64,000 bases of DNA from Octopus vulgaris. Lineage: Eukaryota. Under the pieces are notes generated by a model. The model did not search any database and was not told where the DNA came from. It saw nothing but the letters and a program-made list of their open reading frames with translations. The position numbers and the translations under genes were made by a program. Positions 40,801-58,800 of the stretch are shown here, in pieces; the stretch's first letter is position 1, and each line of letters begins with the position of its first letter. Where the stretch lies: positions 14,818,001-14,882,000 of the forward strand of contig OX597842.1 in the NCBI GenBank assembly GCA_951406725.2. The letters are read 5' to 3'.

Positions 40801-43800
40801 ACATTTCTTTTCGGTTTGAACACCGGCACCGCATTTTCTTTCAACTCAAACTTTACTTTAATTTTTTACACATACCGAGCTCTTTGGGAAAAATAACAGA
40901 GTACATCTTTTTCAATTTTAATTTCATTTTTTCCCATGCTTTCTCTGACACGGACTGTGACGCATTCACCTTGTTACATAATGTATTCAGTGATAGATCC
41001 TACAGGTCGAATCCTTCTATTAAATCTGTGCCAAACAGATTCAATATATTCTTAGATACCATTAGTTTACATTTCCGCGTCCTGTTTTTAAGTTTTATTT
41101 CTGGTGAAATTTCGCCCAAGAATTGAACTCGTTCCGCTGACACACCGTAGGCTATTCTAGTAGTTTTTGTTTTATACAACGGTCTGCCTATCTTAATCCA
41201 TGTTGCTGTATTTATTATCGATACGTCCGAACCGGAATCTAATTGCATTTTGGTCTGAAACCCATTTATTTCTACCAACACAAATTTTCGATTTTGTCTG
41301 ATATAATTTACTTTTGTTGAGTAGACTTTCTTCAGTTTTACCATTTTCTCTGACCGGCATTTCGTCAGTATATGTCCAATTTTACCACACTTAAAACAGG
41401 TTTTATCTATAAAGGAGCAATCTTTCCTCAAATGTCGATCTCCGCAACCATAGCACCATACTTTCTTGTATCATCTCGAAGGTTTATTATTTGTTGACAT
41501 TCCTCAGCCTCTTTCTGCAGAGTGAGTTTCACATCTTGATTCAACTTTGATAATATTCTTTTTCTAATTTCCGCGTCTTCCGTTGCCACTAGCCCTTTAA
41601 CTAATATTAGGCACTTGAACATATTTGGCGTTAATTTTTCCTGCTTAAACCTTTCGCAAGCCTTATTAAGCATACCGGAATATGTTAAAAAAATCATCGG
41701 ACTCGTTTTTCTTTAAATTTAAACATTCTCATCGAACTTTTCTCGCTAAAAATATTAGTCAAAATAATTATGGCTTCATCAAAACACAACCCCGCGGGCT
41801 TTCTCGGCAAAATAAAGTTACAAAATCTTTCGTGTTCCGGAGTCGCAAGCTTTCGGAAAAGGAGCCTTACCTTCCTTTCACAAGGCCATCCATTGCATTC
41901 CTCTCGGAACATGTCTTCCTATCGTATGTAATATGCAGCAAAAGTAGTTCCTTCATCCGGATTGTAGTAAAATTCTTCGATGGAATTTGCAAAACCATCT
42001 GCTGAAAATGATTCGGTCGTATTTCTCGACTGCAGTAACAATTCTGTTAACAACCGTAGATGCTGCTGCTACTCTCGTTTATATACGACTGCTTTCAGTA
42101 ATTCTTCCATTTCAGTACTATTCGAAACCTCGTCACCACTGTTATATCGCACGTTCGGATGACCTCTACTCAACCCTTCTCCTCTCTGACGTCTAGACTT
42201 CTCCCTCTCTATCTACGTATTGGGCTAGTCCACTTCATCGTCTGAAGGCGTCCACACAAAACTTCTCCTTTTTATTTTCTTCTTCTTCATCTTCATTTTC
42301 TTCTTCTTCTTTGCTGTTCGTCGCTTTCTTCATGTAAATTTTTAACCAAAATTCTGTCATAAATGTCTCATAAAAGTGCTTCTTACCTCGTGTTTTGTCC
42401 CAGGTACTTGCATTCTGTAACAAATCTGTAAGGAGAATGCGTCTTGATGATAATATTTCATTGGTAATCATCAACATTTTCATCACTAGTATCATCATCA
42501 GTGACACGAAATTCGTAGAATTGTTCATCATCGTGATCTGAAATCTTTTGCTTTCATCATATAATTCCTCAGACAAATTCTGTCACAAATATATCCTATG
42601 CATTTGCTCATCAACTCAGTTTTATGTTTCAGATACTTAATGTATAATGATATGAAGGAAATCAAAGAAGGCGTCTTCAGTAATCTGTCCAGTCTAACAT
42701 ATCTATAAGCAGAATCATTCTTTCTTATAACATTTCGTTACATATTTCTAAATATGTAATATCTTCCCCCGACTCCCTTCATTCTGAACGTTTTCTCCTT
42801 TTAATTTCATCACCATTACTGAAGTTTTTCACTTTAGTCTTCATATTCTTCGTTCTCCGCTTCGACTTCCTTCCATTCTACTTCTAACATTTCTGTTTTT
42901 GCTTTTTATGTCTCCCTTCTATGCCTTTTGCTCTCTTTTGCATTTTGAGTTATTTTCCCTTCTTTTTAACCTTCTACTTCTTTTATTACAGACGTTTGGG
43001 AAATAATGATATCGAAAAAATTGAATTAAGATCTTTCCATGACCTACCAAGTTTAAGATATCTGTAAGTTGAATAAGCCACGTTCATAATATTTCATTGA
43101 CAATACACTCCTAAATATTCAAGTGCTTTTCATTCATATTCGCACCAAGTCCTTATACCCCATCTGTTTTCTCAATTCTCGTCTGATTGTGTGTGTATGT
43201 GTTTAAATACGTGTGTCAGTGTTTGTTCGAATCTGAGTGTTGGCATGTATATTATTTTGTGTTACATCCAACCTTGTTTGTTCTCTTTAACCAATCCAAC
43301 GAATTCTGCGACTCCATCTTTGCCTTCCTCTACTACAACTGATGTTGCTGTTACTACTACTACTACTACAACCACTACTACTACTACTACTACAACTACT
43401 ACTACTATTACTACTACAACTATTACCACTACAACTACTACTAATAATAATAATAATAATAATGATAATAATAATTATTATTATTATTATTATTATTGTT
43501 ATTATTTTATTATTATTATTATCAATATTATTATTATTATTATTATTATTATTATTATTATTATTATTATTATTATTATTATTATCATTATCATTATAAC
43601 ATCTTCGTTCTCAAACCTACAACCAAATATTCATCTCTTCTGTTTCATCATCTTATTCATTACTAGGAACATCACAACTTCCACCTGTTCTACCGCCACC
43701 TTTATCCTCCTCAACTTTCCCTTTATCATTATCATCATCGTCATCATCATCATCATCATCATAAACAGCAGCACAATCAATATTATTATCATGATCATGA

Positions 43801-55800: not shown

Positions 55801-58800
55801 AGTTCTACCACCACTTTTATCCTCCTCAACTTCCACTTCATCATCATCATCATCATCATCATCATTATCATCATCATCATCATCATTATCATCATTATCA
55901 TCATCATCATCAACAGCAGCATTATCAATATCATCATCACCTTCATCATCATGAAACAAATTATCATCGTGTTTTACTTTACATAACGTCCGAAATCCTT
56001 ATTTCTTAGCCAAAATGTTCTATACAATTCCTTCTTAAGTGAATTTTATGTTCCAGAGTTTTGAGTTATAATGGTATCAAAGAACTCAAACCAGACACCT
56101 TCCGAAATCTGTCCAGTTTAACAAATCTGTAAGTTGAATCAGTGTTTATTTTTATTATGACATTGACGATATATTTCTATAAATGTAATGTCTTCCAATA
56201 CTTCATTCGAAGCAACCTCACCCGTCTTTCCAAAGATGTGTTATCATGTATATAAATCTGTGAGTGTGTGCCCGTTTCCCTGATATGGTACATATGACTG
56301 AGTGATACTTGCGGGGAACAATTTAGTGAATGAATGTGTACGTCTCCGTGTATGTCTACAACCATTGTCTGTCCGAAGAGCGAGGTATTGTTTACCAACT
56401 TTTCTGAATATGAGTGAGGGCATATTTATGAGATTTCGGATTTATGAGTGAATAGCAATTGATGGGAAAATGTTAGTGGAAACTTATTTTTACATACATA
56501 TATGTCTGTGTGAATGTGTATGGATGTGTGGAAGGGAGTATATCATAATGTATGTATATTTCGGCGTGTATATCATGTACGGTGCTTCCGTCGCCATAGC
56601 CACTAATTAATATCATCGACTCTTCTTCTCCTTCCACATCTATTTCATCTTCTCTTTCTCATTCTTCTTTTTATTCTTCTTCTACTTCCTCCTATTCTTC
56701 TTCTTCTTCTTCTTCTTCTTCCTCTTCCTTTTATTATTATTATTATTATGATTCTTTCTTCTATATTTTAATCGCCTTTTAATTTCAAGCTTTTCCTTAT
56801 TTCAATTTACTTTCACGTCTTTCAATTCTCCAAGACTTTTCCTCCTCCTTCATTATTGTAATCTTATTCTTCTTGTTCTACTCATTTTGATTCCTTTTCC
56901 TTTTCTTTTTATCCTCCTCCTCCTTCATCATTTCCTTACAAACCGCAATCATCTCCCAGTTCAATATTTCAAATTAATTTCGCAATACGGTTTTGCAATT
57001 TTCTTCTTTTCTTTTCTCTTTGGTCGACAATCACATCGTTTCATCATCATCAACATCAACTTTACCATCATCAAAATAAACTTCAGTAAGTTTAAAGCCC
57101 TTAAGTTTATCGTAATCACCTAATTCATTGCCATCCACTTTAGAAACAGCACCAGCTTCACAGTCCTATACCAATCTTTCTAATCCTCATAATCATCATC
57201 ATTAACGTCGTATTCACCATCACCACCATCATAATTATCGTCATCAGTATCGTTGTCACGGATTTTACCTCCTTCATAAGAAACAATATTAACTTCATCA
57301 ACACCTTCACCATCCTTCTTTACACAGCCTTTTCCTTAGATTTACCCACACCACCATGAACACCTCCACTCCCACTCTGTTCCGCCGCTTCCTCATCCTG
57401 TCATTCTCAAGATTAACATCATCTCCATTCTATTTTCCTGCTCCACAAAATAGTAATTGTTCAACAATAATATTTTACATTCAATTGTAAAACACTTCTA
57501 TACATTTTCTAATCATCTAAAATTGTATTTTACAGACACTTCGTGGATAATAATATTTTACAATAATACTCATCCCTACGTTACCTTATCAGCCAAACTT
57601 TTATTTTACAGACTTTTGTATGGAAATAATATCGACAAAATTGAATTAGGGACATTCGATGATCTGACCAGGTTAACACATCTGTAAGTTGCATAAGTCT
57701 TGTTGATAACATTTCACTGACGATATATTACTAAACATTTAAAATATTCCCATTTTCTATCACGTCCCGACCTTGCCTTCCTCAATATTATCACACTTTT
57801 TCGATAGAAATGGGAGAATTTGGAGTCTGTAAATATTATTATTATTATTATTATTAATATTATTATTATTATTATTATTATTATTCTATGTTTGACTTTT
57901 GCTTTATATTTGTACAAGTTGGCTCCTCTCTCACCCAGAGACCTCAAGAGACAACAGGGTTGGAAGTTCATGTTGTTGTTATGCCTAGTGTGCCATATAT
58001 TTGGGGGGTGGGGATGTTGTACTAATGAATGTCTAAAAAAAAAAAATTTTTTTTTAATTTTTTTTTTTAAAACCGAAAATTATGGTTGTTTTAAACATTG
58101 AGGTTACATAGAGAGTATTTTGCGTAGGATATGAGCAGTTCCCATGAGCACTATCTTTTGAACTTCTGCCATTTTTGGGTTTCCTGGTATCTGAGTTAGG
58201 TAGCTATCAGCCCCTTTTGCTATCATTCCCAGGGCACCTATGACAACAGGTATTGTTTTAGTCTTCAGCTTCCACATTTTGCTGATTTCTATTTCAAGAT
58301 CTTTATATTTGCTCAGTTTTTGGTAGGTCTTGACAGATACGTTTATATCGATTGGGACAGTCATATCAATGAGGAGGCATGTTCTTTGTTTGAAGTCTTT
58401 CAATATGATGTCTGGCCTATTTGCATCTATCTTCCTGTCAGTTTGAATGGTGAAGTTCCAGAGGAGTGAGATGTGGTCATTTTCAAGCACTGGGGGTGGT
58501 TGGTGTTCCCACCAGTTTTTTTCATGGGGCACATCCAGGTTTTTACAGATTACCCAGTGAATATATTGTGCAGCTCTATCGTGCCTGTTGAGATACTCTG
58601 TAGGCGCTAGAAGACTGCACTTGGAGACCACATGGTCAATGGTTTCATTTTATTATTATTATTATTATTATTATTATTATTATTATTATTATCATTATTA
58701 TTATCATTATCATTATTATTATTATTTTTGTTTTTATTATTATTATCATTATTATCATTATTATTATTATCATTATTATTATTTTTGTTATTATTATTAT

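Follow-up and report, generated by a model that had tools for sequence, protein, structure and literature searches.

What sets two recent tandem copies of one gene segment apart, when they differ far more in their short coding exons than in the sequence between them? The question is raised by a 64,000-nucleotide (nt) stretch of the Octopus vulgaris genome (assembly GCA_951406725.2, contig OX597842.1, positions 14,818,001 to 14,882,000 of the forward strand), hereafter the window, or C29:14818001-14882000, where C29 coordinates refer to the same contig of the 2.8-Gb genome. The window lies within a gene that derives from an adhesion G-protein-coupled receptor (GPCR) and encodes leucine-rich repeats (LRRs) one by one on 72-nt exons, here called cassettes. 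Adhesion GPCRs are usually seen as conserved developmental and neuronal receptors. We propose that this locus most probably reflects strong positive selection on ordinary germline mutations, combined with the copying and homogenising of cassettes by unequal crossing-over and gene conversion; the difference between the tandem copies, A and B, likely records natural selection favouring novel recognition specificities, not a mechanism that targets mutations. The pair amounts to a near-natural experiment, a copy only 0.4% diverged in which one fifth of the binding-face non-synonymous sites have changed, and an immune-receptor-like combination of cassette turnover and selection on six codons makes the system a candidate, open to testing, for variable recognition of non-self in cephalopods.

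Divergence between the tandem copies

Copy A (39919..49633, + strand; 9.6 kb) and copy B (49506..59228, + strand) are 97.7% identical over 9786 nt by blastn. Their ends and their junction lie inside TCT microsatellites (Tandem Repeats Finder arrays at 39917-39985, 49471-49572 and 59059-59232), and crossing-over between such arrays would have made the copy. An older third copy, C, of a three-exon sub-unit (60051..63719, + strand; 95.1-95.3% identical to A and B) served as the outgroup in a three-way site comparison.

Six pairs of cassettes, all on the forward strand and each 72 nt long with an AG acceptor and phase 1-1, can be compared between A and B. In order, these are type C (42633..42704, starting YLMYND, and 52223..52294, starting YLSDNH), type D (42992..43063, RLGNN, and 52582..52653, FLGNN), type A1 (43902..43973, SLSSN...LTS, and 53474..53545, SLRSN...LTI), type B (45480..45551, YLNEN...LIH, and 55077..55148, YLNEN...LTH), type A2 (46442..46513, SLSSN...LTS, and 56057..56128, VLSYN...LTN) and again type B (48000..48071, YLNGN, and 57612..57683, LLYGN). 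A preliminary description of the window had counted 19 differences in 432 nt (7+2+2+1+4+3), 17 of them in amino-acid-changing codons and two silent, and our recount returns the same figures for all six pairs; the four codons with two substitutions and the six type-B starts are likewise as it described. Exon and non-exon divergence are plainly unequal: outside the exons, with simple repeats masked, A and B differ at 29 of 6903 positions (0.42%; Fisher p=7e-12), or at 100 of 9227 (1.1%) without masking.

The excess sits almost entirely on the x positions of the LxxLxLxxNxL motif, that is, on exon codons 22, 23, 1, 3, 4 and 6 (x codons); the other 17 codons form the framework. With sites counted by the Nei-Gojobori method, the x codons hold 16 non-synonymous (N) differences per 81.3 sites and no synonymous (S) difference per 21.3, against 1 N per 227.2 and 2 S per 64.3 in the framework. 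The resulting x-codon proportion of non-synonymous differences (pN), 0.197, is about 47 times the intron rate of 0.0042, to which the framework pN of 0.0044 is close. As the preliminary description had it, 12 of the 13 amino-acid changes fall on these six of 23 codons (binomial p=1e-6), and with pair 1 left out all nine do (p=6e-6). The excess persists against every baseline, including the highest local and the unmasked intron rate, and without pair 1 (Poisson p<=3e-15). Five of the six pairs carry no silent difference at all alongside 12 non-synonymous ones, both silent differences being in pair 1.

Might A and B instead be two haplotypes joined in tandem by the assembler, their differences being allelic and kept by balancing selection? 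A divergence of 0.42% is within the range of heterozygosity and fits this idea, and our comparison data were contigs rather than raw reads. Against it, the sequence shared at the junction amounts to only ~100 nt of microsatellite, probably too little for a long-read mis-join; nested older copies of the same units adjoin; and the x-codon excess would remain in any case. We consider such a mis-join hardly credible.

A second rival dispenses with positive selection: introns would have been homogenised by conversion, leaving older exons in which the framework is purified and the x positions drift. Indeed, non-exon divergence is uneven, with 4 differences in 2482 nt upstream, 18 in 3697 between the exons and 7 in 724 in the piece holding an open frame earlier labelled 'Dong' (0.16-0.97%; heterogeneity p=0.008), and the introns recombine. 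The preliminary description was right that the upstream stretch is little diverged and that the 'Dong' copies differ by about 1%, but its upstream baseline (0.16%) is the least diverged segment. Both silent differences and several shared alleles also occur in pair 1.

Probable selection on strand-face codons across the family

Cassettes of related genes help to decide on drift. We sampled about 12 of some 60 genes, picked for closeness to the window gene, and obtained 227 exon hits, of which 6 out of register were dropped; the remaining 221 were clustered, a partner being needed at >=90% flanking-intron identity. From 28 clusters, three without splice-intact members and two single exons with broken sites were removed, leaving 139 exons in 25 clusters, and allele changes were counted on minimum spanning trees of codons rather than by a codon model. 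These clusters hold 170 x-codon non-synonymous changes (xN) in 342 sites, 37.5 synonymous in 343 and 444 intron changes in 4856, and the per-site rates are 0.497 for xN, 0.153 for x-codon synonymous (xS), 0.078 and 0.096 for framework N and S, and 0.091 for introns. The ratio xN/S is 4.55 (bootstrap over clusters, confidence interval (CI) 3.1-6.4) and is still 3.77 (1.6-5.9) in the 14 clusters without any exon of the window gene. The signal of diversifying selection on the beta-strand face, first proposed from A and B, thereby recurs independently in cassette clusters from paralogous genes.

Older exons would have raised synonymous divergence. Because synonymous and intron rates agree (S/intron 1.2, CI 0.75-1.74), the exons are not simply older than the introns, and these same exons have 4.6 times as much xN as S. 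Together with the five pairs that lack silent changes, and with a framework that is not strongly constrained overall, this largely refutes drift already, and we regard it as very unlikely.

Change by codon position is highest at 23 (0.74), 1 (0.66) and 4 (0.66), followed by 3 (0.48) and 22 (0.29); position 6 (0.19) is not above the convex-side positions 19 (0.20) and 12 (0.18), and the core Leu, Asn and Phe show 0.02-0.06. In an AlphaFold model of the homolog P0003, made from a single sequence (mean predicted local distance difference test score, pLDDT, 49; LRR block means ~60-90) and used for strand positions only, the beta-strand comprises codon 23, the split Leu, codons 1-3 and in some repeats codon 4 (e.g., E54-59). 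In variable lymphocyte receptors (VLRs) and ROCO LRRs the x side chains are known to point to the concave side, where the ligand binds (PMC3900441, PMC3341825); by analogy, the same orientation may be expected in the octopus exons.

Mutation and conversion as sources of alleles

Where do the x alleles come from? The preliminary description had left room for targeted micro-conversion or mutation, that is, for a mutator or templating process, germline or somatic, that writes the binding-face codons, comparable to AID-driven conversion or the assembly of VLRs. Two features would suit such a mechanism: codon 1 differs between A and B three times, each time by two substitutions and never by one, and a 23-nt tract with a silent AAG marker is common to the pair-1 exon of copy A and another cassette type. 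In the window gene's 12 type-B cassettes, though, nucleotide diversity (pi) is 0.263 at x-codon positions 1+2 and 0.000 at position 3, compared with 0.019 in the framework and 0.021 in the introns; these invariant third positions also rule out a regional mutation hotspot. Across the family, synonymous change is not significantly higher in x codons than in the framework (12/79 vs 26/265, p=0.22). The 5' ends of the LLYG and VLSY exons (57612 and 56057) are unique in the genome, each matching only itself, so that neither has a donor with the same acceptor context, and for several other alleles no shared tract >=15 nt was found among the exons compared. Furthermore, one-step intermediates at codon 1 (TTT, CAT) exist in sister cassettes, and the alleles are nested hierarchically among paralogs, as inheritance predicts. 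Because third positions are invariant, xS is not significantly raised and two alleles lack a genomic donor, we find no support for a mutator or templating process aimed at the binding face, and give it very little credence; the codon-1 double changes, which the sister-cassette intermediates do not fully explain, are a loose end.

Short conversion tracts, the other half of the earlier suggestion, are supported for pair 1 and as a process in the background. The B exon of pair 1 lies in a 98-nt perfect tract shared with the paralog exon C29:14226404, and with the 23 nt and silent marker of the A exon this pair is best read as short-tract conversion. In that A exon, 42633, the donor reads AT where GT is expected, a point overlooked in the preliminary description, and the exon is probably unspliced; its pair accounts for seven of the 19 changes, both silent ones included. 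In the type-B cassette introns, 20 of 105 site pairs fail the four-gamete test. Point mutation and conversion both contribute alleles.

Selection on ordinary germline mutations with cassette exchange could then work as follows. The symmetric phase-1 exons would allow repeats to be gained, lost or silenced without a frame shift; each new cassette copy would be a free substrate in which strand-face substitutions are fixed by selection; and conversion would mix cassettes copied by crossing-over in the microsatellite-rich introns.

Gene identity and architecture

The gene was mapped with Octopus homolog proteins as probes, and a scan of the window and its flanks found 30 one-repeat LRR exons, 22 of them inside the window, including the 12 of the six pairs. 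Seven lie upstream of the duplicates (4766..39347, + strand: 4766, 20727, 22443, 27824, 28954, 32700 and 39276), three follow them (60829..63499, + strand: 60829, HLNG; 61815; and 63428, FLHR) and eight more lie downstream of the window end. None of the 30 contains a stop; splice sites are broken in three and weak in one. Exon 32700 has a weak donor and has lost its Asn, and exon 39276 has lost both acceptor and donor. Just past the window, at C29:14883889-14890130, stand six type-B cassettes at ~1.25-kb spacing, four of which start YLSG; this array appears to be a very recent single-exon expansion.

From its 5' end the gene encodes a signal peptide and LRRNT, the LRRs, an LRRCT-like exon, a Ly6-like module (two exons), two Cys/Trp exons, four GAIN-like exons, a GPS exon and a first transmembrane helix (TM1). 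The N-terminal exon, C29:14815194, 2.8 kb before the window, is 75% identical to the start of homolog P0006 (LRRNT E=0.00017, under the cut-off; signal peptide assigned by eye). The Ly6/three-finger-like module matches Pfam UPAR_LY6_2 weakly (E=0.068); used as a query, its exon returned seven proteins, all from Octopus, two of them named adhesion GPCR G6-like and the others TLR5, slit-like, Ly6 and similar. A homolog search with a 41-residue frame around one LRR exon gave three candidates, none at E<=0.01. The GAIN-like exons align to a region of P0006 that scores Pfam GAIN E=0.0018, below the cut-off, and one of them scanned alone matched no family. The GPS exon, C29:14924358, scores 60.1 bits (cut-off 22.5). 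It carries HL|TSF, which we take to fit the cleavage consensus. All 11 downstream ectodomain exon cores examined lack stops.

P0006 is nearly a letter-for-letter match to a paralog at C29:13.44-13.46 Mb, and a secretin-type seven-transmembrane (7TM) domain is present in the paralogs at C29:14.41 and 14.03 Mb and in P0007 (7tm_2, 120 bits). Single exons find 60 (LRRCT), 65 (Ly6-like), 55 (GPS) and 68 (TM5-7) genome matches, some of them fragments or weak, clustered on C29-C31, from which we estimate a family of about 55-65 copies. Going by its exons, the window gene is adhesion-GPCR-derived without being a complete receptor, and the preliminary comparison with VLRs does not describe its identity. 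The GPS and 7tm_2 matches ruled out an LGR/GRL101 or TLR identity. NCBI names P0003 a Toll-like receptor; a TIR domain was found in none of the six homologs scanned, and the window gene itself continues into GAIN-like and GPS exons. P0001-P0006, fragments of one family, are publicly annotated as TLR5, slit-like, Ly6/PLAUR or uncharacterised, and the P0003 model starts with a translated intron; octopus TLR counts may be inflated by such gene models.

Repeat number ranges from ~8 to ~48 across the stretches compared. A minus-strand paralog at C29:14101391-14226404 (100-N gap at 14229549) has at least 48 LRR exons, with about five near-identical four-exon blocks, and a gene on C8 (79128857-79254195) at least 47. 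The cassette type at window 39276-39347 has six copies in C29:14156891-14224402, and all seven have a TT donor; this dead cassette seems to have been copied along with live ones.

Truncation and the status of the gene

The TM1 exon carries a frame shift and a stop at the helix end, and TM2-7 were not found in the 140 kb downstream of it. It is 100% and 97.6% identical to the TM1 exons of two paralogs (C29:15.55 and 13.46 Mb), in whose examined stretches no 7TM exon was found either, and 85.7% identical to that of an intact paralog. The truncated tails are alike over 11.8 kb (97.0%, the C29:15.55 Mb paralog) and 7.1 kb (94.6%); similarity to the intact gene is only 75-77% around TM1, against 95% in the adjacent upstream GPS exon region. 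Family members are mosaics whose identity changes from exon to exon (77% to 99% against the 14.03-Mb paralog over C29:14898765-14924504), which suggests ectopic recombination between genes hundreds of kilobases apart. The truncation is thus old and common to three genes with different ectodomains. Because the tail is only 97.0% identical to the paralog's whereas A and B are 99.6% identical, it probably predates the A/B copy, although an unseen closer donor would weaken this dating; if so, selection acted after truncation, and the binding-face change occurred in a gene unable to make a seven-helix receptor. The TM1 tail shared by the three genes (C29:14925884, 15553434-15553560 and 13461118-13461244) has a hydrophobic end without cytoplasmic residues and could act as a membrane or glycosylphosphatidylinositol (GPI)-type anchor. 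The product of the window gene would then be a singly anchored or GPS-shed ectodomain without G-protein signalling, and intact paralogs would signal through their 7TM domains.

Is the selection merely historical, the copy being a decaying pseudogene whose x differences came from intact receptor genes or had become fixed in them? The frame shift and stop in the TM1 exon, the missing TM2-7, the three dead cassettes and the lack of a gene-specific transcript among contigs guessed to be RNA all fit decay, as does a ratio of non-synonymous to synonymous divergence (pN/pS) of 0.98 against a truncated sister gene. On the other side, private x alleles postdate a copy only 0.4% diverged, no stop has arisen in the 30 LRR exons or the 11 further exon cores, and one truncated tail has been kept in three genes with different ectodomains. 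We judge decay unlikely.

The eight sequencing runs compared all consisted of contigs. In two of four runs, X16 and X18, guessed to be RNA, contigs cover two of the exons, are joined across the intron after exon 52223 at the predicted donor and continue into other LRR exons; they show that the family splices cassette to cassette, and not that the window gene itself is expressed. Among DNA contigs, three of four runs have only paralog alleles at 52452 and 52460, X1 having a 123-nt piece with one difference, and all four have only paralog alleles at 52616 and 52622. Alleles private to the window gene are mostly missing from the contigs of X1, X3, X5 and X6 (window 52050-52940), though holes in contigs are not proof of absence; the window gene possibly varies by presence and absence.

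Several observations weigh against recent positive selection on a working gene. The RNA-guessed contigs carry paralog alleles (at 52622), and of the 30 LRR exons three cannot rely on intact splice sites and a fourth has a weak one. Non-LRR exons, with pN/pS of 0.61-0.63 against four paralogs, reach 0.98 (42 N, 12 S) against a close truncated paralog, and the LRR framework ratio fN/S is 0.72 (CI 0.52-1.02), a weak constraint; because of these two values, relaxed constraint or recent pseudogenisation is possible. A control with the seven dead TT-donor copies, too small to decide, gave 1 xN in 13.3 sites against 7 in 199 for the intron. In pair 1 (codons 4, 6 and 16) and pair 5 (codon 23), at the least, the alleles also occur in paralogs. 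The 47-fold ratio therefore combines newly selected mutations with alleles that were imported, on an intron clock that is partly reset, and should conversion have reset the introns, it exceeds the true omega. For that reason the family-wide xN/S of ~4-5 is the safer measure.

Recognition and known systems

What would such selection be for? There is about an even chance that the driver is a non-self ligand that keeps changing, for instance the surface of a pathogen or parasite, in a host-parasite arms race. The main alternative, which we hold to be possible but clearly less probable, keeps the same mechanism and gives it another purpose, namely self/non-self or sensory recognition: neuronal or sucker self-recognition, or chemotactile sensing, complementing the protocadherins. 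In the available text of Ritschard et al. 2019 (PMC6408891), group 3 of the octopus adhesion GPCRs is expressed in axial nerve cord, suckers and skin of O. bimaculoides, as this alternative would have it, and is enriched in the gill of C. minor, which speaks against it. Very recent recurrent selection, gene birth and death, and truncated members also match the host-parasite receptors of Ectocarpus and fungi.

The same study, the only paper we found on the octopus adhesion-GPCR expansion, reports LRRs in 5 of its 22 sequences and detected selection on branches but at no individual sites. The present family shares with group 3 the Octopus lineage, the GPS motif, a secretin-type 7TM domain in paralogs, an LRR ectodomain, tandem clusters and, in that report, branch-level positive selection; matched by features rather than by a tree, it would belong to this Octopus-expanded class B set with GPS and 7TM and some LRRs. 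It differs in having about 55-65 copies against 21-22 sequences there and selection resolved to sites, and the window gene differs in its 30 LRR exons, its Ly6-like module and its missing TM2-7; one-repeat exons are not described in the part of that report available. Our search of open-access PMC and bioRxiv found no paper on cassette structure or site-level selection in the octopus family; the expansion itself is published.

The evolutionary logic is already known from algae, fungi and plants. In Ectocarpus LRR-ROCO genes, each LRR likewise occupies one 72-nt exon, with selection on the concave face (Zambounis et al., PMC3341825, available text), and inactivated exons (here 3 of 30), repeat-number turnover, recent concave-face selection and high birth and death recur in both. 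The brown-algal proteins are intracellular ROC-COR GTPases and have inverted exons on the non-coding strand, as that text reports, whereas the octopus protein is an extracellular GAIN/GPS protein whose cassettes move with kilobases of intron. No ROC-COR GTPase domain is found in the window gene, the downstream domains being Ly6-like, GAIN-like and GPS. No inverted exon was seen either, all 227 exon hits lying on their own gene's strand.

A second parallel is offered by fungal NWD/HET-E NLR genes, in work by Dyrka et al. 2014. According to the available text (PMC4986451), concerted evolution of their repeats is combined with diversifying selection at the interface; as in the octopus, near-identical repeats evolve in concert within and between genes, and few positions per repeat are selected. 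The fungal proteins differ in being cytoplasmic NLRs with WD, TPR or ANK repeats and in having repeat-induced point mutation (RIP) as a possible mutator, in contrast to the intron-separated octopus LRRs, which show no mutator signature.

VLRs, finally, are likewise solenoids of 24-residue LRRs whose variable residues line the concave beta-sheet, and our per-position counts and the strand assignment in the homolog model place octopus variability there too. They differ in being assembled somatically by a deaminase-mediated, conversion-like process from an incomplete germline gene. The octopus gene has a complete germline chain of spliceable exons between LRRNT and LRRCT, relatives' contigs are spliced, and nothing points to somatic assembly. 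We think it quite unlikely that the family is a VLR-convergent system, in which signalling receptors and truncated, tethered or shed antibody-like ectodomains would be diversified by selection and recombination and, cell by cell, by in-frame skipping of 72-nt cassettes.

Other features of the window

The duplicate carried along an intronic long terminal repeat (LTR) retroelement fragment with zinc knuckle and aspartyl protease (41000..41470, - strand; Pfam RVP 24 bits, cut-off 20.7, and zf-CCHC just below its cut-off), with a second copy at 50590-51060. The 181-amino-acid open frame earlier labelled 'Dong' (48507..49052, - strand; second copy 58104-58649) matched no Pfam family, and the label is not confirmed. 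The first LRR exon is surrounded by a 1.7-kb duplication (89%) of older date (window 1004-2732 and 5284-6981). Lastly, a 365-nt inverted repeat (93%; window 30253-30617 and 31610-31975) flanks broken open frames at 30691-31636 and is probably a small mobile element.

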